A DNA stretch of 64,000 bases. It comes from a virus (lineage: Duplodnaviria; Caudoviricetes). Shown here piece after piece: positions 217 to 42,756 of the stretch (its first letter is position 1; each line of letters opens with the position of its first letter). The stretch lies in the IMG/VR virus record IMGVR_UViG_3300020049_008107, positions 1 to 64,000 of that record, one strand, 5' to 3'. The notes under the pieces are model-generated. The model did no database searches. It had not been told where the DNA came from and saw only the letters and a list, made by a program, of their open reading frames with translations. Position numbers and translations under genes: made by a program.

Positions 217-2937
217 TCATATTTGCATATTCCTAAATGGCTTAAATGCCGAATATCCAATAAATCCCTTCTCAAATCCCACGCGAAGAATGACAAATTC
301 ACCAATACTTAATTGTTGGTTAATATCTATTATCTCCTTGTAGTTTTTAGGGAATATTGTGATTTCATATCGTCCAAAGAAATCCTCAACAGTAAGAAAA
401 CACATCTTTTCATGCTTCGCTTTAGTATAGATTTCCTTCATATCCACTATGTAACAGCCCACGTTAACATAATCCGTATCTCGAAGGTCTTTAAACCTTT
501 GACATTCAATAAGTTCTTGTGGATTAATAGCTATTCTACCAGATAGCGAATATTGATTAAGCCTAAGATTCTTATACTCATCATCAGTAATACCGAGATA
601 AGCCTTGATTTCTTGTAAATCCCAAACGTCATCAAAAGCACCAGCACACAATAATGCTTTAATGGTACTCCTATTTACACTAGGTGATTTAGTGCGTTTG
701 ACAAAATCTTGGAAAGAAATGAACTTCTGTTTAGCCATCTCAGAACCAATCTTCTCAAGTGCACCCTTGCCCACCTTCTTAATTCCAGCCAATCCAAGCC
801 TGATATTACTAGCATCAAGTATGGTATTTTCTATATTGGATTGAAGTATATGAGCTTTGATGACATTTACTTCGCGTTTCTTCATTTGTGATATGAAATT
901 CTGTGTTTCTGCCGAATCTCCAGCACCAAGAGCGCACGAGGAATAATAATACACCGGATAAAACGCCGCAAGGTAAGCAGTTTCATAGCAGATACGCGTA
1001 TAAGCCATCGCATGACCTAAATTCCAGGTATACTTACTAAACTTGTCAATGATAGCCCAAATACGCTCTACATCTTCAATTGTAATACCATTTGCTTGTG
1101 CTCTGTCTGAAAACTTAACCTTTTGTTGTAATAATAGTTCTGGTAGTTTCTTGCCCATAGCCTTTCGAACATCATCAGCTTCAGCCATTGAATAATTGGC
1201 AAGTGTAGTGAAGACGTACATAATCTGCTCTTGATATAATGGCAATTCATATGTTTCAGACATAATGCCCTTAAGTTTTGGGTGAATTGGAACAACATCC
1301 TCTTGACCATTACGCCGTTTAATATAGGATTCGGTAAGTCCTGATAGTAATGCTGCAGACCTACCTAGGGTATTGAGATCAACCAAATCTTTGAATGTTT
1401 TAGGTCTAAGTTGACTAATTACCTTCTTGTAGTTGTATGTATCCCATTGAAAAATACCAGCAGTATCACCAGAATTAATAAGGTCATAGACCTCTGATGA
1501 GTCAATTGGTATCTTCTTTAGGTCTTCAAATGTGAAATTTGGAATGATATCTAGAGCACCCTTGATATTTTGAAGGGTATTCAAACCAAGCACATCCAAT
1601 TTAATAACCCCAAGGTAATCCAAGTCCTCTTGCTCATATTGTGTAACCCGTTTACGCGAATTTGGATGAATAAAAGTAGGTATACCAAGTTCAATAAATG
1701 GCTTTGAAGCAAGAGCTATACCAGAAGCATGCACCCCAATATTTCTTGGAATACCTTCAAATTTCTCAGCTTGTTCAAATAAATCAACAAAATCCTGATT
1801 ATCTTTATTTTTATCATAGATATCCGAATCTCTAATCATTTGTAAATTCAGTGATTGGTCATGTGGAAAAGATTTGATAATACCATCAATCTGAGGTGTT
1901 AGTCTACCTGTAATACGAGCTACTTCGCGAATTGCAGCACGAGCACCAAGGGTATTGATGGTTGCAATATTCATAACCCTTTCATTACCATACTTGAAAC
2001 GCAAATATTCAATGATATATTCTCTATCTTGTGGAAGAAAATCCATATCAATATCGGGCATGGTCTTCCTTCCAGAATTAATAAAGCGGTCAAACGGAAT
2101 AGGGATATTAAATCCATCTGGTTCAACTGGGTTAATTCTAGTAATACCTAGGAGATAAGCAATTAGTGAACCACCAACAGAACCACGACCAGCAGAATAG
2201 TAACCAGAAAGATTCTCGTTACAATGCCTAATTAGATCATACACAAGCATAAAATATTCAGTATATCCAAATTCAGTAATAACCTTCAATTCATAGTTGA
2301 ATCTATCTACATACTTCTGGTTCTGGTGGAAGTTTAAAGCTTCAAATCTACTAGTAACAACATATTTAAAATCTTCTTCTGTAAATCCAGTTGGTGGAAT
2401 AGAAACCTTTTGTGAATCTAATTGATAGTCTTCAAATTGACTGGTGAATTCATCAATGAGAGCTTGACCTTCATAAGCTTGACCTTCTGATACATCTACC
2501 TCATTTAATTGCTTGATAATCTGGAATCCTTGCCTATCATCTGTAGTTAAGTATCTTACTGGTTCAAGACTAATATTCCCATTACTAAGTGCATTAGTTG
2601 ATGAGATTGACAGCAAATTTGGTGATGTTATCATCTCAAATAGAACTAATAGCGATTCCTGTAGATCAACAAGTATCTGGAATCCAACATTATTCTTCGC
2701 AAAAACGAAGAACCATTCAGACTCTAAACCTTCACCCTGCAGCTTTACTTCAAGCTCAAGACCAATAATTGGTTTAATACCCTTAGCCTTAGCCTTGCGG
2801 TAAAATTGGAGTGATGACATCATGGTATCATCACAAATTAGACAATAATCGCCTTCTTTGTGTTGAGCAAGAAGGTCATCTATAGTGATAATTGATTTGA
2901 GAATACTACCTTGTGCAGTCTTTACGTTTAACTTCAT
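217..2937 (-). CDS. dnaE: DNA polymerase III alpha subunit (family C, DnaE-like)
   Basis: 906 aa; SAGRGSVGGSL, catalytic MPDIDMDF, GVHASG, KLDVLGL and LYQEQIM motifs; C-terminal OB fold; shortened PHP domain. Confidence 0.95.
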   Translation of the reverse strand: MKLNVKTAQGSILKSIITIDDLLAQHKEGDYCLICDDTMMSSLQFYRKAKAKGIKPIIGLELEVKLQGEGLESEWFFVFAKNNVGFQILVDLQESLLVLFEMITSPNLLSISSTNALSNGNISLEPVRYLTTDDRQGFQIIKQLNEVDVSEGQAYEGQALIDEFTSQFEDYQLDSQKVSIPPTGFTEEDFKYVVTSRFEALNFHQNQKYVDRFNYELKVITEFGYTEYFMLVYDLIRHCNENLSGYYSAGRGSVGGSLIAYLLGITRINPVEPDGFNIPIPFDRFINSGRKTMPDIDMDFLPQDREYIIEYLRFKYGNERVMNIATINTLGARAAIREVARITGRLTPQIDGIIKSFPHDQSLNLQMIRDSDIYDKNKDNQDFVDLFEQAEKFEGIPRNIGVHASGIALASKPFIELGIPTFIHPNSRKRVTQYEQEDLDYLGVIKLDVLGLNTLQNIKGALDIIPNFTFEDLKKIPIDSSEVYDLINSGDTAGIFQWDTYNYKKVISQLRPKTFKDLVDLNTLGRSAALLSGLTESYIKRRNGQEDVVPIHPKLKGIMSETYELPLYQEQIMYVFTTLANYSMAEADDVRKAMGKKLPELLLQQKVKFSDRAQANGITIEDVERIWAIIDKFSKYTWNLGHAMAYTRICYETAYLAAFYPVYYYSSCALGAGDSAETQNFISQMKKREVNVIKAHILQSNIENTILDASNIRLGLAGIKKVGKGALEKIGSEMAKQKFISFQDFVKRTKSPSVNRSTIKALLCAGAFDDVWDLQEIKAYLGITDDEYKNLRLNQYSLSGRIAINPQELIECQRFKDLRDTDYVNVGCYIVDMKEIYTKAKHEKMCFLTVEDFFGRYEITIFPKNYKEIIDINQQLSIGEFVILRVGFEKGFIGYSAFKPFRNMQI

Positions 2938-3145: not shown

Positions 3146-3240
3146 TATCTGTTCCTTCTTATTTTTATCGAGGTATCAGTAGGATACCTTCTTTTGTCAT
3201 TTTAACAGATACCCCTTTCCTTGTCAAGCACGTTTTAGGT
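3146..3240 (-). promoter_or_regulatory. repeated sigma70-type promoter cassette, copy 1 (type A)
   Basis: TTGACA (3222-3227), 17 bp spacer, TAAAAT (3199-3204), AGGTATC/GATACCT palindrome, RBS; near-identical to 28141-28234. Confidence 0.85.
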
Positions 3241-3689
3241 CAAGGATTCTCTTCTTGTTCAGATTTAAGAAACTTATCAATAGAAACATGTTTATCATTT
3301 CCACGGACTATTATCTTAGTGTAGGTATTAAGCCATTTCTTCATATAAAGCTTCACGTACTTAGAGAATGGTGCTCTTGGTGGATATTCATAATGAAATA
3401 TACGTCGATGGAATTCGCCATAACAAAGGCTGAGTATGTCATCAAAATCAGAATCATAAAGATGGTTCTCATACTGCTTGAAAATCCGGTCACACAGCTT
3501 TCGAAGCAGACCATCATGGAATAGGAATATGGCATTAAATATAGATTGTCTCTTATCCTCTCTATACAAAAGAATAAGAGTATCTACATGAGTTTCAGTA
3601 GTTTGCTTGTTTTTTTTATGATATTCTTTGAGAAGTATAAGATAATTCTTTACGTTCTCTAAGTAATCTTTCTGCTGTTGTTGCATCAA
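3240..3689 (-). CDS. sigma70 region 2-like protein (putative phage sigma or transcription factor)
   Basis: 149 aa; DFDDILSLCYGEFHRRIFHYEYPPRAPFSKYVKLYMKKWL resembles sigma region 2. Confidence 0.5.
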   Translation of the reverse strand: MMQQQQKDYLENVKNYLILLKEYHKKNKQTTETHVDTLILLYREDKRQSIFNAIFLFHDGLLRKLCDRIFKQYENHLYDSDFDDILSLCYGEFHRRIFHYEYPPRAPFSKYVKLYMKKWLNTYTKIIVRGNDKHVSIDKFLKSEQEENP

Positions 3690-3854: not shown

Positions 3855-4445
3855 CTAATTACCAGAACTACCAAAACCAGCAGCGCCACGACCACCAGCT
3901 TCAACTTTCAAGTCCACAACTTTACGAAAGTTGCCAACTGTATGATGTAATGGGATAAATTGTGCAATTCTCATTCCAGCATTTACAATCTTTGGCTCTT
4001 TATTAAGATTCATACATTTCACAAATAATTCGCCAGTAAAGTTGTGATCAATAACTGAAATATCTATTGCAAGTTTATGTTTCGCAATTGTTGAAGACCT
4101 TCCAATCAACATTAACCAAAGAGGTCTATTGCATTTTACAGCTATTCCAGTAGGAATGTTAACCATTTTATTTGGTGGTATCTCAATGTTCTTTGAAACA
4201 TACAAGTCATATCCAGCATCTGTATCATGTGCCCTGGTAGGTAGCTTTGCATCTTTATCAAGTTGTACCCACTCAAAATCATACGAAAACAGCCAATCTG
4301 AAATCTTCGTTTTCAAGTACAAAGAAAAAGTTCTCTTTGCTTCCCCTCCCCTACTGAAGAGAAAAAGCAAAGAGCTAGTCAGGAACACCATAGAAACAAC
4401 AAACAGAACAAAGAAAACATCAAAATTGAATAGAGTAGGGGACAT
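3855..4445 (-). CDS. dut: trimeric dUTPase with N-terminal hydrophobic segment
   Basis: Motifs AGYDL, GRSS, VIDHNFTGE, RIAQF and RGAAGFGSSG; GAGG RBS upstream of the first ATG. Confidence 0.9.
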   Translation of the reverse strand: MSPTLFNFDVFFVLFVVSMVFLTSSLLFLFSRGGEAKRTFSLYLKTKISDWLFSYDFEWVQLDKDAKLPTRAHDTDAGYDLYVSKNIEIPPNKMVNIPTGIAVKCNRPLWLMLIGRSSTIAKHKLAIDISVIDHNFTGELFVKCMNLNKEPKIVNAGMRIAQFIPLHHTVGNFRKVVDLKVEAGGRGAAGFGSSGN

Positions 4446-5289: not shown

Positions 5290-5556
5290 TTATCTAGCAT
5301 AATATCCAAACTCATAATAAGAAGCGTGTATTGCAAGTGTTTTACGTTGAAGATCTGAAAGTTGATAGGTACATTTACAAATACCAGAAACTTGTTTAGT
5401 ATAATTGTTCTCAATGTAGTTATCTTCAATCAATATTTCAGCGAGGTGTCTACGCAATTGTAAATCAGGCAATAATAAAAGTTCAGTTTGACGTTTCCAG
5501 GTAAATCTAGTATCAACAAACTTTAAATCAATGGGATATTTACAATTGAACATCAA
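5290..5556 (-). CDS. hypothetical protein
   Basis: 88 aa; coupled to the primase-helicase stop. Confidence 0.6.
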   Translation of the reverse strand: MMFNCKYPIDLKFVDTRFTWKRQTELLLLPDLQLRRHLAEILIEDNYIENNYTKQVSGICKCTYQLSDLQRKTLAIHASYYEFGYYAR

Positions 5557-8012
5557 TTCTTTGCCTCACTCATTAACAAACTTGACGGATCAAACTGAAT
5601 GTTAACACCTATTTTATCGCGAGAATAGCGCACCTTATCAATAAAAGCGTAAATGTTACCAGAACCAACACCATCAAGTTGGATTTCCTTATCCGTCTTA
5701 CGTTTCATCGCAATAGCTACATCAGCATCATTAAGCATTGCTTTAGCTTCTGCAATTCTACGCATAGAAGGAGTTTTGTCATCATTAGCAGCGTCTGACT
5801 GTTGAGCAGGTAGTATAATAGCAATATCCAAATCTTGAGCTAGAGCCTTAAAAGTCTTGGTCATATTAATAAGCTTTTCCCTTAAATCCATGTCCGAACC
5901 ACCACCAAAGTCAACCAATTGAGCATAGTCAACAATGGCATATTTGATATCATGTTTCTTTTTTAGGTATTTAAGTTTATTGCATATCATAGAGAATTTG
6001 AGACTCTCTACTAGATGTATCTTTTGAAATAGGTGACCTTTGTTTTTAATAAGATTCATAGCTAAGTTTGCACCAACATCATCAAGACCAGAACGCATAA
6101 GGGCAGTATTATCAAGACCAGTCTCAAATGATATCATCCGACCAATAATCTCTTCTTTTGACATTTCTCCTGAAAAGATAACCCCATCATACCCATTATC
6201 AAGTGTTATAATCTTAGCCCAATTTAAAGCCAGATTTGTTTTACCAACACCAGTGTTACCAATAATCATTATTAACTTCTTTGGCATGATACCCCAAATA
6301 GAAGAATCAAACTTAGACCATCTATCACCAAGTTGCACACCCTTATTTTCAGACCTGTTGAGAATTGAGTCTATTGTTGATACAAGAGCAGTCTTCCCAT
6401 CAACTATAAAGGTATCATTATTAGAATTAAATGACAAATCAGTAGTACTTCTTATTGATTCTATGTCCATTGAGTCAATATTAGTTAGTACTGACTGAAA
6501 TGCGTATTTTATTTTACGTTTTTGGCAAACTTCAACGAGTTTTTCGTAGTGTAGCTTCGTTTTCCCATCGGGAATTGGAAGGGTGTCTAGTATGTCCTTT
6601 GAATAACCAGTCAAATGCAATTTAATTGTTTCAAGAGAAACAGACTCATTTTTCGTAATAAAACTCACTATTGCAGCGAAAGCCTTTGAGAAATATTCAC
6701 TAGTTATGTTTTCTGAATACACAATCTTTTGATTATTGATCAAGTTTGCAACAAGTTGTTTTTCTATTTCAAATGTTGAAAGGGTTGAATCTTTAAATAC
6801 TTGATTTACTATTACTTCACTCGGCAAAGTATAGGTATTTGATACGAAGTTGATAAACTCATCATAATAGAAATACTTAATCGACTTAAGAACATTAATA
6901 CAATGTTCATAAGTACCATACTCAACGAAATTATTATGACACCAAACAGGCAATATTTGTGCATTAAGTATAGTACCATTGATAGCTTGTGAACCATACT
7001 TAATAGCATAGTCATCAGGATCAAAGCCTTCATAGTATATACATTTTATTTTTATTGAATAATTTGCTACTTGATCTGGAGTAGAGGTCTTATTTAAGCC
7101 AAAAGCATTAGCATACACACCATTAATAAATTTTTTCCCTGCTTTATCACCATCTACCCATAAATACAATGTAGAAAAATGCTTAGTAAAATATGACATT
7201 AAACCACTATCAATTCGAAGACCAGACATACCAACTACATTGGTAAAACCAAGTAATCTAAGCACTAACACATCAAATACACCCTCAACCAATACAACAT
7301 CCGGTTTGGACGTAATTATCTTGTCAATACCATAATTGAAAAGACCTTCACGAAACTTTAAGTTAAAGTATTTGCCATTAGAAGTAGACCTAATTATAAA
7401 TCCAACTATTTGTCTAAATTCATCTCTAACAGTAAAGATAATAGCCGAATCAAACTGATCAAACACAACAAGATCACTATCATCTGAATTCTTTGGTAGA
7501 TATAATCCTCTACCATTCACATATCTGTATAGCTCATCACCAGATTGACAATAGCCAACACCTTCTGACAAACAAGAAGAAATATCAAACATTCCTCGTT
7601 TATTCAAGTATTCTTGTGGATATGCTTCTTGTAGACCATTAGCAAAAAATGTAGATAGTAATTCCAATGTTGTGTTGAGATCAACATCAAACTTAGCATT
7701 TTGGTAAGCTGACTGCTCAAGATTAAGCAGTTGTATTAACTTTAAAGCTGCATCATCAGTTGAAAGATTGAGCCATTTTTGCAAGAAGGTGATGACATTT
7801 CCACCAGTTGCAGTAGAGAAGCAATAGAAGACATTTAACTTGTCTACTGATATAGTGAATGATGGGGTATTGTCATGATCGTTTAATGGGCTTTTACAAG
7901 ACCAATTCTTACCAGATTTCTTAAATGACCTATGTGTTTGTTCCTGAATGAACTCTTTTAAATTGGTTGTCTGTTCAAAGTCTTCAAGTAGTTTCTTTAT
8001 ATTAAAAAGCAT
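5553..8012 (-). CDS. DnaG primase-DnaB helicase fusion
   Basis: 819 aa; Zn-finger-like N-terminus (TPSF...YCF), TOPRIM VEGVFD and DGDKAG, Walker A GNTGVGKT, IVDYAQL. Confidence 0.92.
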   Translation of the reverse strand: MLFNIKKLLEDFEQTTNLKEFIQEQTHRSFKKSGKNWSCKSPLNDHDNTPSFTISVDKLNVFYCFSTATGGNVITFLQKWLNLSTDDAALKLIQLLNLEQSAYQNAKFDVDLNTTLELLSTFFANGLQEAYPQEYLNKRGMFDISSCLSEGVGYCQSGDELYRYVNGRGLYLPKNSDDSDLVVFDQFDSAIIFTVRDEFRQIVGFIIRSTSNGKYFNLKFREGLFNYGIDKIITSKPDVVLVEGVFDVLVLRLLGFTNVVGMSGLRIDSGLMSYFTKHFSTLYLWVDGDKAGKKFINGVYANAFGLNKTSTPDQVANYSIKIKCIYYEGFDPDDYAIKYGSQAINGTILNAQILPVWCHNNFVEYGTYEHCINVLKSIKYFYYDEFINFVSNTYTLPSEVIVNQVFKDSTLSTFEIEKQLVANLINNQKIVYSENITSEYFSKAFAAIVSFITKNESVSLETIKLHLTGYSKDILDTLPIPDGKTKLHYEKLVEVCQKRKIKYAFQSVLTNIDSMDIESIRSTTDLSFNSNNDTFIVDGKTALVSTIDSILNRSENKGVQLGDRWSKFDSSIWGIMPKKLIMIIGNTGVGKTNLALNWAKIITLDNGYDGVIFSGEMSKEEIIGRMISFETGLDNTALMRSGLDDVGANLAMNLIKNKGHLFQKIHLVESLKFSMICNKLKYLKKKHDIKYAIVDYAQLVDFGGGSDMDLREKLINMTKTFKALAQDLDIAIILPAQQSDAANDDKTPSMRRIAEAKAMLNDADVAIAMKRKTDKEIQLDGVGSGNIYAFIDKVRYSRDKIGVNIQFDPSSLLMSEAKN

Positions 8013-9281: not shown

Positions 9282-10280
9282 TTAACCCCTTAGTTCAATT
9301 AATTTCTCTTGTATTAAGAAGAAGATTTCTGGTTTTTCTTTGAGTAAAAGAAGAAGGTTGTCTTTGCCTTGCACCAGTTTCTCACCATTAAATGAATAAT
9401 GACCACCAGATTTTGAATCAATAACGCCTTTATCAATTGCTTCTTCAACAAGGTCATACAACTCAGAGATACCTTCACCAAACACCAGTCTAGTTAAGTG
9501 CTCTCGGTACGGCGGAGCAAGCTTATTCTTTATGATTTTGATGTTGACCATATTATGGTCTTCCTTGCGTTCCTTAATTCTAATATCTAATCTAACAGAA
9601 GCAAAAAACTTAAGGGCATTTCCGCCAGAAGTTGTTTCAGGCGAGCCAAACATAACGCCAAGCTTCATGCGTATTTGATTAATAAAAACAAAAGCTACAT
9701 TTGATATATTTGGAGTAATAACTCTACAATAGCGATTCATAAGACGAGCTTGAGCACCCATATTTGCATCAGTCATATCACCCTCGATTTCTTGCTTTGG
9801 AACAAGAGCAGAAACTGAATCAACAACAAACATACAAGGTCTATCATGGGCATTTAATTTTGGTAGAATGGAATTTGTCATTTCAATCGCTTCTTCACCA
9901 AAATCAGGTTTTAAAATTATCATATTGTCAATGTCAACACCTAAAGCCCTAGCATAATTAACATCAAGTGCCTGCTCTATATCATTAAATACAAAAATCC
10001 CACCGTTCTTTTGACAATTTGCGCCAGTTTGAAGCATAGTAGTGGTTTTACCACCACTCTCTGTACCGTATGCTTCTGTAATTCTGCCAACAGGTATTCC
10101 TCCACAACCAAGTTTATTATTCAAACCAATACTTGGAGTGGGGATTACTGGAACTTTTACAACCTGATCAACATCAGTTCTACCGAGTACTAGACAGCTA
10201 TTTTTACCGAATGACTTTAAAATGTCGTTTTGGATAGTTTTTATTAGGTCTGTAGTCTGTGGTAAAACTGATGTTGTCAA
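9282..10280 (-). CDS. recA: RecA recombinase
   Basis: GRITEAYGTESGGKTT, VVDSVSALVP, QARLM, FINQIRMKLGVMFGSPETTSGGNALKF. Confidence 0.97.
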   Translation of the reverse strand: MTTSVLPQTTDLIKTIQNDILKSFGKNSCLVLGRTDVDQVVKVPVIPTPSIGLNNKLGCGGIPVGRITEAYGTESGGKTTTMLQTGANCQKNGGIFVFNDIEQALDVNYARALGVDIDNMIILKPDFGEEAIEMTNSILPKLNAHDRPCMFVVDSVSALVPKQEIEGDMTDANMGAQARLMNRYCRVITPNISNVAFVFINQIRMKLGVMFGSPETTSGGNALKFFASVRLDIRIKERKEDHNMVNIKIIKNKLAPPYREHLTRLVFGEGISELYDLVEEAIDKGVIDSKSGGHYSFNGEKLVQGKDNLLLLLKEKPEIFFLIQEKLIELRG

Positions 10281-10290
10281 TGTCGAACTC

Positions 10291-11331
10291 CTAAAAAGCT
10301 TGTTTCATACTATCGAGGCAAACCTGCATATTTTCCATAAACCACTTGCATGCAATATTATCTGCAGCATTACCAGCAGAAGCATTCCATTTAACAAAGG
10401 GTTCACCAGATACCAAATATGCTTCTTTAACAGTTTTGCCCTTATGGATACCAGAAGCAATAACCGTACTCAAACAGGATTCAACAGTCATACCACTTTG
10501 TTGAGTAGTGTTAACTGGTGTTTCCCAAGGTTGGACTGGTATTTGTCCCTGTGGAGCTTTACCAAGTTGATTGCCAATATTAACTGGCGGTTGACTTGGT
10601 GGAGTCGGCATACCAGTAGTTCCAGTGTGCTTGACACCCCAACCAGAAATATCAATTGGTGGTATTTTACCAGATGCCATTTCCTGTTCTTTTACAGCCC
10701 AATAGACTACTGGATCAATACCAGTCTTCATATTGTATTCCTCGCGAGACAACTTCCAATCAAGTTCTTGAAGTGGCTTGTGAGTTGCCTGCTGAGTTAA
10801 TTGCTGCCAATCAGCCGGAAGAGGCAAAACATCAATCCGATAATCAGACTTGTCGCCTTTACCAATTCTACTAACGCGAATACAATTAGTGAAACCAGTT
10901 GGATTTTGATTGTAAAGGAAATCAAGTTGTTGCAACTGTTTAAAACCAACAATCCAATACATGGTTTGATTGGTGTCAAGTCTTAAAACCGGAACAATCT
11001 GATATTTACCAATTCCATAGGGTAGCTTCTTACCTTCAGCTTTGTAATTTGGAAACCTAGCCTTGAATAGCTCATTTTCGAATGCAATTGGACAAGCCAT
11101 TTCGAAGTTGGTACTAACAAGAGTCACAAAATTCTTTGCACCCTTATATTTGTGTACCCAACGAACTGATGGTTTAGTCCAAGTATGTGTTTTGTCTTGT
11201 GCACCAGTAAGTAAAATCAGGTTTACCGATGAATCCGGAAGGAAATTGATTAAATCAATGCCTTGCTTGTATGGGTAGAAGGGCTTTTGTTGCCCTCCAC
11301 CTTCACTTTCTTCTTCATTACCCCAACCCAT
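10291..11331 (-). CDS. single-stranded DNA-binding protein (gp32-like OB fold) with Pro/Gln-rich linker
   Basis: 346 aa; aromatic-rich N-terminal domain, RIGKGDKSDYRI strand motif; adjacent to recA. Confidence 0.55.
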   Translation of the reverse strand: MGWGNEEESEGGGQQKPFYPYKQGIDLINFLPDSSVNLILLTGAQDKTHTWTKPSVRWVHKYKGAKNFVTLVSTNFEMACPIAFENELFKARFPNYKAEGKKLPYGIGKYQIVPVLRLDTNQTMYWIVGFKQLQQLDFLYNQNPTGFTNCIRVSRIGKGDKSDYRIDVLPLPADWQQLTQQATHKPLQELDWKLSREEYNMKTGIDPVVYWAVKEQEMASGKIPPIDISGWGVKHTGTTGMPTPPSQPPVNIGNQLGKAPQGQIPVQPWETPVNTTQQSGMTVESCLSTVIASGIHKGKTVKEAYLVSGEPFVKWNASAGNAADNIACKWFMENMQVCLDSMKQAF

Positions 11332-11603: not shown

Positions 11604-12638
11604 TTAATATCGTACTAGGTCATCTACTGCATTTACAGACCAGTAGCATTTTAAGTTACCAGAAGCCATCAAATTGGCAACAATGAATTCCCTAGCTTTT
11701 TGGTTAAGCTCATGCAGATGAATGGCTTTTTCATTTTCCTTACCAAGATAGTTAAGGAACGTAAAGCAGGGGATTGTCACCCCATTTTGCTCGCATGAAC
11801 GACGATACAGCTCCATATCCCAAGAACCTATTCTTCTTTGTCTCTTTGTTACCGTTGTGATTTCTCGAAGATCAGAATAGCCGGACATTTCGGAAACGCG
11901 TTCCCAAGAAAGCTCTTGGTACATTCCACCACTCTCACCAGCAACGCGAATAGGGAAGGTGCGAAATACACCATACACATCGCGAACTTGTGACCAAGGA
12001 AGTTGAGCATAAGAAAGGAATGCTTGAGTGGTGGTGTCCCTAGAAGTCGTTTTGGGATAATGAGCACCAAGTACTGACAAACCAAATCCCTGACTTCCTT
12101 CAAGTAGAACTGTCCTACCATAGTGCATATGGATATCTAATACACAATACCTAGAAAGTTCTGGTACATCTTTAACAATGGTAGCTTTTCTTAATGCTCT
12201 CATACTAAGGGCAGCACCGATACCCTCCTGTGTTGAACCAGTAGACTGCCAAGGAAGGTGTTCCTTTTCCCATTCTTCGTTTTCATGGGTAATTACAGTT
12301 GCAAATGCCGAAATATACAATCTGTTCTTGATAGGAATACCAAGAGATTCTAGCATGCCAATTTCATCAATTAGAATCTTTGGATTGATAATTGCACCAG
12401 CACCAATACAGATGATAGCATCAAAATCAGTAATTGCTCCAGATGGGATATGTCTAGTAACCACTTGTTGCATGAAATTATCGTCTCCATCAAATAGTGG
12501 AGCGGTATGCCCCGCTTGAGCGGAATTTACACTAATAATAGTATCATACTTATTAATCTTAGCTAGTTTTGCCGCTACTAGCCCTTTACCCTCTGAACCA
12601 TATTGCCCACCAATTACTACATCTATAGTACGTTTCAT
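11604..12638 (-). CDS. purZ: PurZ-type adenylosuccinate synthetase homologue (candidate 2-amino-deoxyadenylosuccinate synthetase)
   Basis: 344 aa short PurA fold: GGQYGSEGKG (Ser at the PurA catalytic Asp position), AGHT, GSTQEGIG, EGSQG, TFPIRVAG, TTVTKRQRR, FTFLNYL. Confidence 0.8.
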   Translation of the reverse strand: MKRTIDVVIGGQYGSEGKGLVAAKLAKINKYDTIISVNSAQAGHTAPLFDGDDNFMQQVVTRHIPSGAITDFDAIICIGAGAIINPKILIDEIGMLESLGIPIKNRLYISAFATVITHENEEWEKEHLPWQSTGSTQEGIGAALSMRALRKATIVKDVPELSRYCVLDIHMHYGRTVLLEGSQGFGLSVLGAHYPKTTSRDTTTQAFLSYAQLPWSQVRDVYGVFRTFPIRVAGESGGMYQELSWERVSEMSGYSDLREITTVTKRQRRIGSWDMELYRRSCEQNGVTIPCFTFLNYLGKENEKAIHLHELNQKAREFIVANLMASGNLKCYWSVNAVDDLVRY

Positions 12639-12848: not shown

Positions 12849-13604
12849 TTACGAGTGTGACTGGTTGTGTCTGATTACTAAATTCTGTAAGAATGGCTTA
12901 AGAGTTGACTCGATGTCATTCGCTATCTTACCAAAAAGTGAAAGCTCTTTGCAAACCTCTTTAATTGGCTTTTTATCAGTAATGGCAATGGTAGCTATCT
13001 TTTTTTCAATAGCTTTTAGTGGTGATGACTTAATAGAAGCGCATAGTCTATTAATTAAATCGTTCATTTCAGTTTCTTGTTCAAATTTAGCTTGAACCGA
13101 AAATTTAGCCATGGTTTGATCTATGGCGAATGCAACCGTTTTTTCCTTACTAACGAATGAGCCAATCTTAACTGTATTCAAATCAATGTCCTTCTTTTGG
13201 GATAGTTTTTTGGGTGTGATATAGTTGGTGTATTTTACCTTACATTCTGGACAGCCATTCTCAGTGTTCTTGTGGGTATAAGAGAATACAGTGTTGCATT
13301 CATCACATTGGTAAAATAACTTTTGACTTGATACCGCTCTATAATAGTCTAGAGTAGCACCATAACCACGTCTTGCACAAAAAGCAAGCGGATTACCAAC
13401 ATCAAGTTTAGCTCTTCCAAGTGCATTGTACGCAGCGATAAGAAATGCAGACTTAATCTCATCTTGGTCATAGAGGTAATTGTGGTTTTGATGTGGTTTG
13501 AAGAACTTTAGTAGTTCTTTGGTAATGTGTGATTGTTCAGATAAAGTAGGGTTTTGCCCTTTTTGTATCTTAATGATTATTTTGTTTGTTAGTGTTTGTT
13601 CCAT
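12849..13604 (-). CDS. sigma-factor-like protein with zinc-ribbon insertion
   Basis: 251 aa; region 2-like DEIKSAFLIAAYNAL...GATLDYYR, CDEC...CPEC, C-terminal HTH-like PIKEVCKELSL. Confidence 0.55.
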   Translation of the reverse strand: MEQTLTNKIIIKIQKGQNPTLSEQSHITKELLKFFKPHQNHNYLYDQDEIKSAFLIAAYNALGRAKLDVGNPLAFCARRGYGATLDYYRAVSSQKLFYQCDECNTVFSYTHKNTENGCPECKVKYTNYITPKKLSQKKDIDLNTVKIGSFVSKEKTVAFAIDQTMAKFSVQAKFEQETEMNDLINRLCASIKSSPLKAIEKKIATIAITDKKPIKEVCKELSLFGKIANDIESTLKPFLQNLVIRHNQSHS

Positions 13605-24391: not shown

Positions 24392-24862
24392 CTATTTTTG
24401 CTCCAAAATACCTAAGAAGTCAGGAGAAATTAAAGTGTCATGAGTAGCCTTACTAATTCCTTGTGGTAAACAATCTAAATGAAACCAGCCATAGTTTCTC
24501 ATTTCATCAGTGTGTTTCATTCCTTCTGGTAAATCACTTAGATTAATAATATAGATATGAATATTGTCGCCATTTGGTTTGCGGAATGAATAGCTACCTA
24601 ATATATCAGTTGCAGCATTTATAGCATCAAGATCAATACCAGATTCTTCTTCCACTTCACGTTTAAGAGTGTCTTCTATATCTTCACCAACAATAGCATG
24701 CCCACCAGCTACAGCCCACGAATCGTCATCTGATCTTTGAGCAAGCAATAATAAACCTTTATAGAAGATATAAGCAAATGCACAATTCTTTGAATCTGGT
24801 CTATAAGCAGAAAACTGCTTAACTGTTTCTTGTAGGTCTTTCCTAGCTTGATCTCTACCCAT
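24392..24862 (-). CDS. Nudix hydrolase
   Basis: Nudix box GGHAIVGEDIEDTLKREVEEESGI. Confidence 0.9.
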   Translation of the reverse strand: MGRDQARKDLQETVKQFSAYRPDSKNCAFAYIFYKGLLLLAQRSDDDSWAVAGGHAIVGEDIEDTLKREVEEESGIDLDAINAATDILGSYSFRKPNGDNIHIYIINLSDLPEGMKHTDEMRNYGWFHLDCLPQGISKATHDTLISPDFLGILEQK

Positions 24863-34694: not shown

Positions 34695-36854
34695 CTATAT
34701 TTCTTCTAAATAAAATATGTATTTATAAGTCAAATGTGTTTCATTTATCTTAGTAACATTATATACTAAATTTCTTGGCAGGAGTACTTCAAATTCCTTA
34801 TCCTCAAATGAACCAGCAAGCTTGTTGATATACACACCAGATTTAGTTTGTATTATCATCCTATAAGGTCTATTAAAAGCCTTATCTTCTTTAATAGAGG
34901 TAGAGGTAAATCCGCGTAAAATAAGTGGTTGTTTAGCATTAAATCTGTCTAATATTACCTTAGCTAACTGGTCTGTATCAAATCCCCTATATACAACACC
35001 AGCAAATTTAGGTGCATACAGTAGGAATCTATCAACATTTCTAATGTCAACTAGCTCATTAGCGGTTAATTTAGTATTAAACCTAAGTCCTTGATTATAA
35101 TCATGACCTGAACCAGTGTATGCACTAACCGATTGTACTATGTCAGGAGACTTAGCCTTTACATCACTAATATACTTATTAATATTCTTTTCATGATTTT
35201 TAGGTACAATATCCATCACCCTAGACATACCAAGACTAGACAGGTCTTTACTTGTCGGATCATAAGGCAAACAAGTAGTAGATTCAATATGTTGTATCAT
35301 TTGTGACACTTCAGACTTCGAATTTACCCTAATACCAGTAGTTAGTTCATACCAAGTAGTTAGCTTTTTAAATTTAGGGTGTGACTGTAATTCACCCATA
35401 TCAGTATCAAGTATATCATTCTTCTCATTTTTATCAAGTACTACAGCAGAACCATAATTGTTATTGATAAATCTTTTTTGCATATAATTAAATCTTGCTT
35501 TAAGAATGGCATATATACTACTAGTTTTAATAACGTTTAGTACTTTAAGCATTTGGGGTTGATATTTATTGAACTGTTTAATTAAGTCGTCTTCATCTAA
35601 AGCACCAAACACCTTAGAAGCTTCTGGATTTATACTACCATTACGCATAGTCTCAAATTCTGTCACTTCTTTGGTAAGGTCTTTATTTCCACCAGTAGCC
35701 TTGTAGGTTAGTGCGCCACCATTATCAATCCTATAGACCTTACCATCTTTTACTATGATATTGCTACCACCAGTACCAATTACATCCCAATTTCCAAGCC
35801 ATGCATCAATGATAAATGAGGAACGAAGTTTAAGTATAGCCGAATTTCTATCATTTTCAGAAAGCTTACCAAATTCAGTGCCATCAATATACTTAGATAG
35901 TTGGTATGCCTTACCTTGGTCATCGGATTTGATTGTAGTTTCTGGTACATCAATACCAATAGTGTTGTATATGCTATTAGCTAAACTTTCACTCTGTATG
36001 TGTCCAGCACTAGCACCATATTTTTGAACATAGACTATTCCATCGACTAACACTGGTTTTGCTCCAGTAGAAGATGAACCAATAATTGGTAAAGTGGGTG
36101 TTACATTAGCAGACTTTGGAAGTGCCGTTTGATTAGAAGTCTTATCCTCAAGCTTTATACCAGTTCCATAAGTCTTAATAAGATATAAGATTTCGAGTTT
36201 GGTCATTGATGATATCTTATCACCTTGAACTTTACCAATGTCACCCAGATAGTATAATTGCTCTTGTATAAATGGATCAGCATGGAACTTCTGAATTGTT
36301 AAGAACTTATATTTGTCTAATGGGTGTGGTTCTGGTTTCTTATTTGCTACAGTTCCAGTTGATGATAATGGTGTAGATGTAGTGGGTTTGTCTAGTTTGG
36401 ACTTATTTCCACTATCAATCTTATCAGTATATTTTTGATATAAAGTAACAATTAGAGTATTTGATATAGAAGAGTTTGTTGGAACTAACCACTTGAAAAA
36501 TCTCCAATCTGGAAATACATTTGGATAAAATGTCCACTTATTAAGCATTCTATTAAATGCATCAAAAGCTTCAGGACTAGACCTTTTTAATAAGACGGTT
36601 TTAACTAGTGCTGATACTAATTTTGTAGTGTCGGCATTCATATAATTAATGAATTCGCGTTTTTTGGTTCGGTCTAGATAAAAACCAGAGTAACCCTTTA
36701 ATATGTGGATTTTTGATGCTTTATTGGCAAATATCTGTTTAAATGTTGAAGTAATAGAAGAACTATTAAAATTAGATGTTACATCAGTTGATTTTCTTAC
36801 TAATATTGATGTAGCTTGAAGATGTAAAGATTTTAATACCTCAAGTCTATGCAT
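34695..36854 (-). CDS. kinase-like domain fused to an ADP-ribosyltransferase domain (Alt/VIP2-like)
   Basis: 719 aa; YVQK...SESLA...DAWLGNWDVIG...NII...RIDNG; C-terminal VYRG, FTSTS, EFEVLLPR. Confidence 0.85.
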   Translation of the reverse strand: MHRLEVLKSLHLQATSILVRKSTDVTSNFNSSSITSTFKQIFANKASKIHILKGYSGFYLDRTKKREFINYMNADTTKLVSALVKTVLLKRSSPEAFDAFNRMLNKWTFYPNVFPDWRFFKWLVPTNSSISNTLIVTLYQKYTDKIDSGNKSKLDKPTTSTPLSSTGTVANKKPEPHPLDKYKFLTIQKFHADPFIQEQLYYLGDIGKVQGDKISSMTKLEILYLIKTYGTGIKLEDKTSNQTALPKSANVTPTLPIIGSSSTGAKPVLVDGIVYVQKYGASAGHIQSESLANSIYNTIGIDVPETTIKSDDQGKAYQLSKYIDGTEFGKLSENDRNSAILKLRSSFIIDAWLGNWDVIGTGGSNIIVKDGKVYRIDNGGALTYKATGGNKDLTKEVTEFETMRNGSINPEASKVFGALDEDDLIKQFNKYQPQMLKVLNVIKTSSIYAILKARFNYMQKRFINNNYGSAVVLDKNEKNDILDTDMGELQSHPKFKKLTTWYELTTGIRVNSKSEVSQMIQHIESTTCLPYDPTSKDLSSLGMSRVMDIVPKNHEKNINKYISDVKAKSPDIVQSVSAYTGSGHDYNQGLRFNTKLTANELVDIRNVDRFLLYAPKFAGVVYRGFDTDQLAKVILDRFNAKQPLILRGFTSTSIKEDKAFNRPYRMIIQTKSGVYINKLAGSFEDKEFEVLLPRNLVYNVTKINETHLTYKYIFYLEEI

Positions 36855-37298: not shown

Positions 37299-39080
37299 TT
37301 ATCCTAGTGGGATAACTACTCCTACTCCAACAGCTAAACTTTCAAGAAGTGGTGGCGGATAGAACCTAGTAGCTATATCACCCTCACCAACATTAATTGC
37401 TGCTTGGTCATTGTTAAACTCATCAGCTTGAACAATAAACACATCAGCAAATGTAGAATCTGTACCATCTTCTTTCTTGAATGAACCAAATGCACCTTCC
37501 GGATCAATACCAAATGGGAATGAACCTTGCCAGCACTTATATCCAAAGTCATTGATTTTTTGCCCGTATTCCTTCAATTTAGATAGTTTGTTAGGTCTAT
37601 TTTCTGCTTGAGATAATGACTCAACAGTTGATATCTTGAAGAAGTTTTGCATAATAAGGTAATGACCAAATAATGCACCAACATTTGTAGACAAAGTACG
37701 GAATGAACGAAGTAATACACCCTTACCAGGTCTTGCTTGAATTAGATTAATACCGGCAGCTAATAGATCAGTTCTATCATCTTCAGACCATGAATCTTCA
37801 GGTAAATTAGGAGTATCCACATAGCCAGACATTGGAGAATCTTCACCAGCAGGAACGCGATGGAATCCAAGTCTATAGAAGGTTTTAATCCAATTACCCA
37901 TTACCCCACCAATGTTAGGAATACGAATAACAGGATTTGCCCCATCACCAATTGGATCAGAAACATTGCGCCACCCATATGATAAAACGGCTTGAACTTG
38001 GTCACTTCTCTGGAATCCATTGCCAACAGTAATAAGTTCATCTTTAGTTAAGTCCTTTGTTATGTTACTAATCCAAACTGGTGTATCTAATCTTTCAGTA
38101 CAGTAAGCTTCACCAGCAACATTAACACCAGATACAGTAGAATCAGCATTACCAAGTAGTCTAATTGGGAAAGAATCAAATGAAGCAAGTAGGTCATTCC
38201 AGTCAGCACTAGAACTTGGTGCAGTACCATCACTACCACCAGTAAGCATTCTTTTTGTGATATCAGCAGGATACTTATCAAATAGAACAGCAGAAGATGA
38301 ATTGCTATCTGTTATGTTGATAAGTGGGTGGTCTTTGAATTGATTACCAATATAGAATTCAATGTTTTGTGGTTCAAGTGATAACCATCTAGTAGACTGT
38401 GGTAATTTTACTTCATTGAGCAAACCGCGTCTATTTTTCTTGAAAACAGAAATCTTAAATCCAATAGCAGCTACATCATCTGCTGCAGTAAAAGCATTAG
38501 TAGTTGCAGCACAACCAACAGCCTTTAGGGTTTCATCAATAGTCAATACTTTTACATATTCTGGAACAGAACCAATTCTAAGTACATCACCAATACGAAT
38601 ATCCGAAATGGAAGTAAGCAATAAACTAGTAGCACCAGCAAGAGAGTTAGCAGCCATAGTAGTCTTGAATCTATCACCATTAATCCAGCTAAAAGCTAGC
38701 TTGTTACCATAGATGGATTTGTCATTCTTTAATTGGAAAGCGGATAACACTTGAGCGGATTCAATAGCAGATGCAGTATTTTTACCAAGGACTAATGACT
38801 TTGCTTGAACAGCATCAGAGGCAACATAACCCTTAATACCAATTTTACATTGCACACCCTTAAGATTTGCATAGGTATGGTCAAGAACATAACGACCATA
38901 AAACCCTAATCTATTGTCTCCAGCTTTATAATCAGCTTCAGATTTGTTATTGAGTACAATTACTTCATCAAATCCTCTATCAAAACGACCAATAAGACCA
39001 ACAAATCCAAAATCTGCAGGTAAGATTTCAACACCAGTTCTAGGAGGTAGGTTATACCCAAATACACCACGTCTACGCAT
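37299..39080 (-). CDS. contractile tail sheath protein
   Basis: 593 aa; RRRGVFG N-terminus, LTGGSDG, LLAAGINLIQARPGKGVLLRSFRT. Confidence 0.9.
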   Translation of the reverse strand: MRRRGVFGYNLPPRTGVEILPADFGFVGLIGRFDRGFDEVIVLNNKSEADYKAGDNRLGFYGRYVLDHTYANLKGVQCKIGIKGYVASDAVQAKSLVLGKNTASAIESAQVLSAFQLKNDKSIYGNKLAFSWINGDRFKTTMAANSLAGATSLLLTSISDIRIGDVLRIGSVPEYVKVLTIDETLKAVGCAATTNAFTAADDVAAIGFKISVFKKNRRGLLNEVKLPQSTRWLSLEPQNIEFYIGNQFKDHPLINITDSNSSSAVLFDKYPADITKRMLTGGSDGTAPSSSADWNDLLASFDSFPIRLLGNADSTVSGVNVAGEAYCTERLDTPVWISNITKDLTKDELITVGNGFQRSDQVQAVLSYGWRNVSDPIGDGANPVIRIPNIGGVMGNWIKTFYRLGFHRVPAGEDSPMSGYVDTPNLPEDSWSEDDRTDLLAAGINLIQARPGKGVLLRSFRTLSTNVGALFGHYLIMQNFFKISTVESLSQAENRPNKLSKLKEYGQKINDFGYKCWQGSFPFGIDPEGAFGSFKKEDGTDSTFADVFIVQADEFNNDQAAINVGEGDIATRFYPPPLLESLAVGVGVVIPLG

Positions 39081-42042: not shown

Positions 42043-42756
42043 TCATATTTTAATATCGAATAAATGTACTTGTGATTTATGACAATATAGCACATCAGTT
42101 TGATACTTATTATTTTTGTGTATTGATATTGCTGAAGTGTGTCTACCAACTTCAATAAAATCATCGGGCATTTGATATTCACTTATTAATATTACATGAT
42201 TTTTTGATTGTTTTCTACACCAATTATAGAACTTCTCATAGTCAAAACTAACATTATATTTAACAGTTTTAGCCGATTTATATGGTGGATCACAATATAT
42301 AAGCGAATTTTGTGGAATATCTAATTCATCATAACTACAATTATAGAATTCAACATCTTTTATGAGTGGCAATTGTTTCAACAGTGATCGACTTACATTT
42401 GAAAATTTCGATGGTCTATTTTTAGACCTTGGGTATCCGCACCAATATTTAGCACCAAATGAACAAAAACCAACAAACGCAACTAGTTCTGGTTGATAAT
42501 GATCTTTGTTATTTTTTATGCGATTATATTGGTCTTCAGTGATATCAGTGGGGGGAATCCAGCCACCTTGTAATGCTTCCCACATAATTATCAATTCTGA
42601 ATGGATGTCAGATGCAATACGCTTACCACCAATTTTGTCAATTACATTACACCCACCACAAAAAGGATCAACATAATATTCATAATTATTGCGTATTTTG
42701 TTAATTATTGGAACAAAAGTTTTTGATTGTCTAAACTTACCACCAGAATATTGCAT
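42043..42756 (-). CDS. DNA N6-adenine methyltransferase (Dam / D12 class)
   Basis: YSGGK, DPFCGG (SAM binding), IYCDPPY (catalytic), ISEY. Confidence 0.9.
   Translation of the reverse strand: MQYSGGKFRQSKTFVPIINKIRNNYEYYVDPFCGGCNVIDKIGGKRIASDIHSELIIMWEALQGGWIPPTDITEDQYNRIKNNKDHYQPELVAFVGFCSFGAKYWCGYPRSKNRPSKFSNVSRSLLKQLPLIKDVEFYNCSYDELDIPQNSLIYCDPPYKSAKTVKYNVSFDYEKFYNWCRKQSKNHVILISEYQMPDDFIEVGRHTSAISIHKNNKYQTDVLYCHKSQVHLFDIKI

Follow-up and report, generated by a model that had tools for sequence, protein, structure and literature searches.

To our knowledge, phage genomes in which 2-aminoadenine (Z) takes the place of adenine (A) have until now been linked with small siphoviruses and podoviruses replicating by a PolA-type DpoZ polymerase or a PrimPol, and with the synthases PurZ and PurZ0. 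The classical system of S-2L is a precedent for combining a non-selective polymerase with dATP removal, and residues F295/N297/Y298 of PhiVC8 PurZ form the published pocket for the adenine of ATP. The PurZ0/DutZ/DmtZ system is known from actinophages (Arthrobacter phage Wayne, Gordonia phages Ghobes and Archimedes); its DutZ enzymes hydrolyse dATP and dGTP to monophosphates, so that a single protein removes dATP and supplies dGMP, and dutZ is present in 98 of 98 PurZ0 genomes (PMC12884076). Nucleoside 2-deoxyribosyltransferase (NDT) enzymes have been tied to Z phages twice in the literature. Here we describe a PurZ-type gene in the first 64 kb (the window, that is, the whole stretch analysed, 64,000 nucleotides) of the complete 73,734-bp virus record IMGVR_UViG_3300020049_008107 in IMG/VR. 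By sequence, its open reading frame (ORF) is a member of a well-supported third PurZ clade, sampled through about 59 proteins and from metagenomes only, and its helpers, a DutZ-like dUTPase homologue and an NDT-superfamily gene in place of DatZ and MazZ, are of the type seen with PurZ0. We propose that this phage probably writes Z instead of A.

11604..12638, minus strand: PurZ-type synthase (predicted N6-succino-2-amino-2'-deoxyadenylate synthase), assigned from family matches, diagnostic residues and trees

The ORF is intact and encodes 344 residues from an ATG start. Its coordinates are exactly those given in a preliminary description of this DNA, and every motif quoted there is present (GGQYGSEGKG at residue 10, SAQAGHT at 39, PIRVAG at 229, TTVTK at 261 and FTFLNYL at 292). 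Its similarity to adenylosuccinate synthetases is much too strong to be due to chance (Pfam PF00709 Adenylsucc_synt, E = 1.1e-38; PHROG 1211, '2-aminooxy adenylosuccinate synthetase', E = 9.8e-69), and the family has 3933 members in a representative library of 1.84 billion proteins. Similarity alone does not settle the subfamily, because the PDB scores are nearly equal for Pyrococcus PurA (126 bits, the top match), PurZ0 (7VF6, 122) and PhiVC8 PurZ (122), with S-2L PurZ at 80; 7VF6 is the PurZ0 of Gordonia phage Archimedes (NAR 2026 methods, PMC12884076).

Diagnostic residues were read from an alignment with the classical PurZ of Vibrio phage QH (PhiVC8 group), S-2L, PMBT28, JeffCo and BCSR129, the PurZ0 of Wayne, Ghobes and Hiyaa, and E. 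coli PurA, all translated from annotated records; it recovers the published numbering exactly (PhiVC8 F12, S14, P233, T262, F295 and Y298; S-2L S23, T273 and Q308). The window protein has the PurZ state at all seven discriminating positions (Y13, S15, P229, T261, F294, N296 and Y297). Like classical PurZ, it carries Ser for the catalytic Asp, an aromatic residue for Trp (S-2L likewise has Tyr there), Thr in TTVT, Pro in PIRV and an F-x-N/Q-Y adenine pocket at the TKLD site, at about 33% identity over 86-91% of the length. S15 aligns with Asp13 of E. coli PurA (D14 counting Met1), with PhiVC8 S14 and with S-2L S23, and is invariant in the clade, as are F294 and N296, so the Asp-to-Ser change reported earlier is real. 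At the TKLD site, F294/N296/Y297 stand where PurZ0 has Met/Asp/Gln and E. coli PurA Lys/Asp/Val. The earlier suggestion that Phe and Asn here fit an ATP-using PurZ holds up, because PurZ0 and PurA differ at this site while the PhiVC8 pocket aligns, PurZ0 (TMLDQ, against TFLNY here) having retained the guanine-binding Asp. The Gln of SAQAGHT, singled out before as atypical, is indeed present and distinguishes the protein from classical PurZ, but it is invariant across its own clade and therefore a clade signature, not an error.

None of the roughly 250 nearest family members, drawn from two very large protein collections, has the catalytic Asp, and 51 of them share the S/E/Q/N/Y signature of the window protein. 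In a FastTree of 238 sequences, the clade of the window protein has 59 members (support 0.98), while the classical PurZ references (1.0) and PurZ0, with 84 members (0.98), each form a clade of their own. SH support for the clade of the window protein is 0.98-0.99 across trees; in an IQ-TREE of 86 sequences its ultrafast bootstrap value is 99%, and the classical references reach 100%. Neither the FastTree nor the IQ-TREE resolves how the three groups branch; when ten archaeal short PurAs, chromosomal or from metagenome-assembled genomes (MAGs), are added, the clade comes out as sister to classical PurZ (0.90). In that tree, 12 short PurAs, ten of them archaeal, form an Asp-type clade (support 0.90) that excludes the window protein and every Ser-type protein, so the grouping with archaeal PurA that could have spoken against the earlier proposal is not seen. 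The archaeal short PurAs (Pyrococcus horikoshii, 5K7X/2D7U; chromosomal Methanobrevibacter, Methanobacterium and Archaeoglobus) share its architecture of about 340 residues, its fold family and 31-36% identity, but they have W/F, Asp, Gly and Asp at its Y13, S15, T261 and N296. Against the archaeal-type PurA model NF003295 it reaches 200 bits (cut-off 368 bits), and it is far under the cut-offs of all PurA equivalog models. GenBank phage records hold no clade member (best identity 37%), and none comes from an isolated phage, in keeping with the earlier remark that such a phage would be new territory.

Ser-type short PurA homologues in which the guanine-binding Asp is retained also sit on contigs assigned to cellular genomes, namely L142 (a Woesearchaeota MAG), L139 (Actinophytocola xanthii) and L113/L116 (Saccharibacteria bins), some of these contigs being 100-350 kb long.

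The PurZ gene lies in a minus-strand replication block that runs from a zinc-ribbon protein through PurZ, a 77-aa ORF, a 346-aa protein, UvsX/RecA and two small ORFs to a primase-helicase, two further ORFs, the Dut homologue, a 149-aa ORF and DnaE.

12849..13604, minus strand: zinc-ribbon protein (OapC-like), directly upstream of PurZ (PF09845, E = 1.9e-5)
10291..11331, minus strand: 346-aa conserved protein between PurZ and the recombinase, no family match
9282..10280, minus strand: UvsX/RecA-type recombinase (PHROG 97, E = 2.1e-71), kept in the module
5553..8012, minus strand: primase-helicase fusion of a DnaG-type primase and a DnaB-type helicase (PHROG 19, 6444 and 47), kept in the module
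3855..4445, minus strand: trimeric-dUTPase homologue of the DutZ type (predicted dATP/dGTP/dUTP diphosphatase; PF00692, E = 3.7e-23)
3240..3689, minus strand: 149-aa conserved ORF, always between Dut and DnaE (tblastn)
217..2937, minus strand: family C DNA polymerase (DnaE, Pol III alpha; PF07733, E = 1.7e-65; also PF17657, PF14579 and PF02811)

The order PurZ, RecA, primase-helicase, Dut, 149-aa ORF, DnaE recurs in 8 of 8 informative clade contigs, the window genome included; the related contigs with enough flank are L012/L049 (69.8 kb, complete), L021, L022 (51.8 kb, complete), L023 (48.9 kb), L106, L107 and L108. The minor members travel with it: the zinc-ribbon protein has tblastn matches in six related contigs, the 346-aa protein has homologues scoring 138-155 bits in L012 and L021-L023 and a counterpart at the same position in L106-L108, and the 149-aa ORF, which has no Pfam, PHROG or NCBIfam match, gives tblastn matches at 37-52% identity in 7 of 7 related contigs. 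DnaE, at 531 bits above the cut-off of TIGR00594, is the sole DNA polymerase found in the genome. Pfam scans of the whole genome returned no PolA, HD/DatZ, MazG, DUF550, PurB, ribonucleotide reductase (RNR) or nucleotide kinase (only 13 families came back from the 97 remaining ORFs), and tblastn found no match in the genome to DatZ (three references), MazZ (two references), DpoZ, DmtZ or PurB. The partners of a classical Z cluster, DatZ and a nearby MazZ/DUF550, are thus missing genome-wide. Unlike classical PurZ, which belongs with DatZ, MazZ/DUF550, DpoZ or PrimPol, the enzyme described here has Dut and DnaE as its partners, and its phage is a 74-kb myovirus.

Other PurZ-bearing contigs show further combinations. 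The 140-kb contig L011/L110, filed in GenBank under a Nitrosotalea (archaeal) MAG, carries a PurZ of the same clade; this large phage also encodes a portal of the T4 type, a class II RNR with an intein, and a PolA that has a UDG domain fused to it. Two IMG/VR contigs of other PurZ lineages encode DnaE next to PurZ, one (L029) with DatZ-like and MazZ-like matches and the other (L061) with Dut, RecA and primase-helicase; the linkage of PurZ to DnaE therefore extends beyond the clade described here.

The Dut homologue has its Dut domain at roughly residues 57-196. When it was compared with 50,697 phage records, DutZ genes of PurZ0 phages scored highest (82-102 bits; phages of Arthrobacter, Microbacterium, Gordonia, Streptomyces and Micrococcus), and ordinary Dut reached 68 bits or less. 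GRSST in motif II and (Y/F)TGEL in motif III are common to the protein, its orthologues and DutZ, and E. coli, Lactococcus and Staphylococcus Dut have neither. A 12-sequence tree separates DutZ from ordinary Dut with 84% bootstrap, and both the window phage and every related contig that includes the downstream flank (7 of 7) have a DutZ-like Dut. In sequence, then, this Dut resembles characterised DutZ more than it does ordinary dUTPases. The window ORF also has a hydrophobic N-terminal extension of about 55 residues that its orthologues (156-168 aa) do not have; because its ATG at 4445 is preceded by a GAGG ribosome-binding site, a membrane-anchored form of Dut is possible.

Three genes beyond the block were considered alongside it.

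68024-68491 of the genome (G000; L002:5025-5492), minus strand, outside the window: NDT-superfamily protein (PF24963, DUF7768, 34.5 bits; PHROG 355)
68472-68846 of the genome (G000; L002:5473-5847), minus strand: DUF1599 ('nucleotide modification associated domain 1'), adjoining the NDT-like gene
24392..24862, minus strand: NUDIX hydrolase, a possible extra nucleotide-pool enzyme (PF00293, E = 1.1e-12)

The NDT-superfamily protein matches PHROG 355, 'nucleoside 2-deoxyribosyltransferase', at E = 8e-15, has ESM Atlas neighbours of the DUF4406/DUF7768 type and shows a GTIAEI motif at the position of the catalytic Glu of NDT; its gene is kept in two complete sister phages, G002 and G003. We regard it as a candidate functional analogue of DmtZ. 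Its single-sequence AlphaFold model is too low in confidence to use (pLDDT 44.6), and phmmer against PDB returned nothing for either this protein or the DUF1599 protein. The DUF1599 gene adjoins the NDT-like gene again in G003 and has an invariant E66/D70/D74 face; its model (pLDDT 72.6), a four-helix bundle, matched known folds only weakly (Foldseek E above 1; VIA Z at most 7.3). MazG/HisE/DCTPP1-type NTP pyrophosphatases recur among the full-length matches to this predicted structure, a lead and not a finding, since the fold is a helical bundle. The NUDIX hydrolase was considered as a substitute for MazZ in the Z system and rejected, as the complete sister phages G002, G003 and G004 have no homologue.

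Set beside the PurZ0 system as a whole, the window phage resembles it in a Ser-type synthase with a PurA-like P-loop Glu, in having PurZ0 phages as its best isolate BLAST matches (33-37% identity), in a Dut with GRSST and TGEL that is always present, in an NDT-superfamily gene in the genome and in lacking DatZ and MazZ. It differs in the loss of the guanine-binding Asp, in belonging to a separate PurZ clade, in replicating with a family C DnaE where those phages use the PolA DpoZ-1, in having no phage PurB, in an NDT-like protein of the DUF7768/DUF4406 type that has no detectable similarity to DmtZ, and in a contractile tail and an AT-rich genome where those phages are GC-rich siphoviruses.

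From the family, the residues, the clade and the gene linkage we infer a working Z pathway served by a non-selective DnaE, which we consider the most likely reading with moderate confidence. The PurZ-type enzyme would join dGMP and aspartate and in doing so consume a nucleoside triphosphate, ATP or dATP being the most likely; the resulting formation of N6-succino-2-amino-2'-deoxyadenylate would be the first committed step to dZTP. The DutZ-like Dut, if it acts as Ghobes and Wayne DutZ do, would remove A by hydrolysing dATP and supply dGMP by hydrolysing dGTP. The synthesis of dZTP would be completed by the host enzymes PurB, guanylate kinase and nucleoside-diphosphate kinase, and the phage DnaE would copy the genome with Z opposite T, so that virion DNA would contain Z because dATP is removed and not because the polymerase selects Z. 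The NDT-superfamily protein may add a DmtZ-like step that destroys dAMP, or a salvage step.

Several observations weigh against this pathway. For the synthase, the best-scoring curated model is NCBIfam PurZ NF038379, which speaks for the assignment, but at 221.7 bits the match is under the 300-bit cut-off; the Glu of its P-loop GSEGKG is shared with PurA and PurZ0, whereas each of the five classical PurZ references has Thr there (GSTGKG); and the protein lies outside both characterised clades, classical PurZ and PurZ0. The PurZ assignment made in the preliminary description thus stands for the Ser-type active site and the PurZ residues and falls short on clade, curated cut-off and P-loop. Dut genes are common in ordinary phages, and this one is also near the ordinary dUTPase models (97.5 bits, cut-off 102.55 bits). 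The NDT-superfamily protein has no similarity to the DmtZ of Ghobes, Wayne and Hiyaa by phmmer or tblastn. At 66% A+T, full substitution would send half of all nucleotides through dGMP, and the phage has no RNR, PurB or kinase of its own. Finally, the window encodes an adenine methyltransferase.

42043..42756, minus strand: Dam-type (D12 class) N6-adenine DNA methyltransferase (PF02086, E = 1.7e-13)

Its FCGGC and DPPY motifs are intact, which is hard to square with an adenine-free genome. The gene lies outside the conserved module, and all three complete sister phages and all five reference Z phages lack it; it therefore does not belong to the Z system.

Two departures from this pathway keep Z and change one part of it, and we consider each of them unlikely, to a similar degree. 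In the first, the phosphate donor would be GTP, as it is for PurZ0 and PurA. The P-loop, the PurZ0 phages at the head of the BLAST matches to isolates, the PurZ0-like helper set (Dut-like and NDT-like) and a PDB score to PurZ0 7VF6 that is the same as to PhiVC8 PurZ all lean this way. The nucleotide-recognition site itself leans the other way: the guanine-recognising Lys and Asp of TKLD have become Phe and Asn, followed by Tyr, matching PhiVC8 F295/N297/Y298, and the Asp is kept by PurZ0 and by 10 of 10 archaeal PurAs, with N296 and F294 invariant in the clade described here.

In the second, dZTP is made and the genome is substituted only in part or conditionally, a non-selective DnaE working with incomplete dATP removal and the leftover adenines serving as the target of the Dam-type enzyme. 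This would give the intact D12-class methyltransferase a role and suits the depletion of GATC (observed/expected 0.47), the lack of DatZ and DpoZ and the high A+T demand; in the literature, heterologous Z clusters yield partial incorporation in E. coli. The literature also describes PurZ0 phages that attain Z genomes with DutZ as the sole dATP-clearing enzyme, and S-2L, which is fully substituted with a non-selective PrimPol, and the three complete sister phages manage without the methyltransferase.

Less probable again is that a Ser-type, PurA-like enzyme acts on another substrate, in nucleotide salvage or some other purine modification, and has nothing to do with Z-DNA. Ser-type short PurA homologues are numerous and diverse, occurring also in Saccharibacteria, Actinophytocola and Woesearchaeota bins, and the window protein is under both curated cut-offs; against this stand its setting in a replication module, where no vWA or NAD-salvage gene is among its neighbours, and its linkage to a DutZ-like enzyme, given that the known action of DutZ both yields the PurZ substrate and removes dATP. 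We see very little prospect for an ordinary PurA-type auxiliary metabolic gene that raises the supply of AMP and dAMP for an AT-rich phage, which could appeal to the 66% A+T and to the generic adenylosuccinate synthetase family given by Pfam, because the catalytic Asp is Ser throughout the clade, the guanine-recognition Asp is lost, the protein is far under every PurA equivalog cut-off and it sits outside the Asp-type clade.

Taking the Z pathway with DnaE as the preferred reading, a bolder joint version of it can be put forward tentatively, as a possibility to which we lend less credence than to the pathway itself. It would hold that these phages embody a third, independently assembled Z architecture, comprising a new PurZ clade with an ATP-type pocket and a PurA-like P-loop, a DutZ-type enzyme as the sole dATP filter, a family C DnaE and a fully Z-substituted, AT-rich genome with one base in three being Z, all in contractile-tailed phages of 50-74 kb, with the Dam-type enzyme of the window phage methylating Z itself.

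The phage that would carry this system has 121-bp direct terminal repeats, a G+C content of 34.4% over the whole 73,734-bp record and no tRNA genes, and 20 kb of the window had no megablast match among phage records. Its morphotype follows from its tail genes.

37299..39080, minus strand: tail sheath protein (ESM Atlas structure match to clusters with PF04984/PF17482)

The sheath ORF was identified only by Atlas structure search, with template modelling (TM) scores of 0.81-0.82 over 533-541 residues, and has no direct Pfam or PHROG match. Matches to baseplate wedge and J proteins are present, together with tape-measure, capsid, portal and terminase genes, and the related contig L107 carries Sheath_initiator and Wedge1. 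Because a tail sheath protein is present, a contractile tail and the myovirus morphotype are supported, in agreement with the preliminary description. Its further label, spirochaete-type, finds no support: among named bins, clade members turned up only in Fibrobacter and Nitrosotalea MAGs, on two contigs that look phage-like. These two contigs were also the only matches in a search of 185,579 species genomes, in which no integrated copy was found. Between the sheath gene and a small downstream ORF, a 719-aa protein (34695-36854, minus strand) has a C-terminal ADP-ribosyltransferase domain (PF03496, E = 1.2e-7; also PF01129).

The whole genome also bears a possible mark of restriction. GGCC does not occur once in its 73,734 bases (about 56 expected), and observed/expected ratios are 0.67 for CATG, 0.47 for GATC and 0.83-1.32 for the other four-base palindromes. 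Z could not protect GGCC, because this site contains no A, and its complete avoidance suggests a HaeIII-type system in the host.

We found nothing in the full-text literature that connects PurZ to DnaE, Pol III, myoviruses or NUDIX, and the two most relevant papers do not contain those words. If the proposed pathway is true, several consequences would follow. Metagenomic surveys that use DatZ, MazZ or DpoZ as markers would undercount Z phages. The synthase would be a hybrid enzyme in which the change of phosphate donor from GTP to ATP could be probed, and its partner would be a natural family C polymerase that copies Z-DNA, of use to synthetic biology. For the biology of Z phages more broadly, dATP removal would suffice where no selective polymerase is present, and the union of a third PurZ clade with DnaE and a DutZ-type enzyme in myoviruses would make the switch from A to Z portable across replication machineries.

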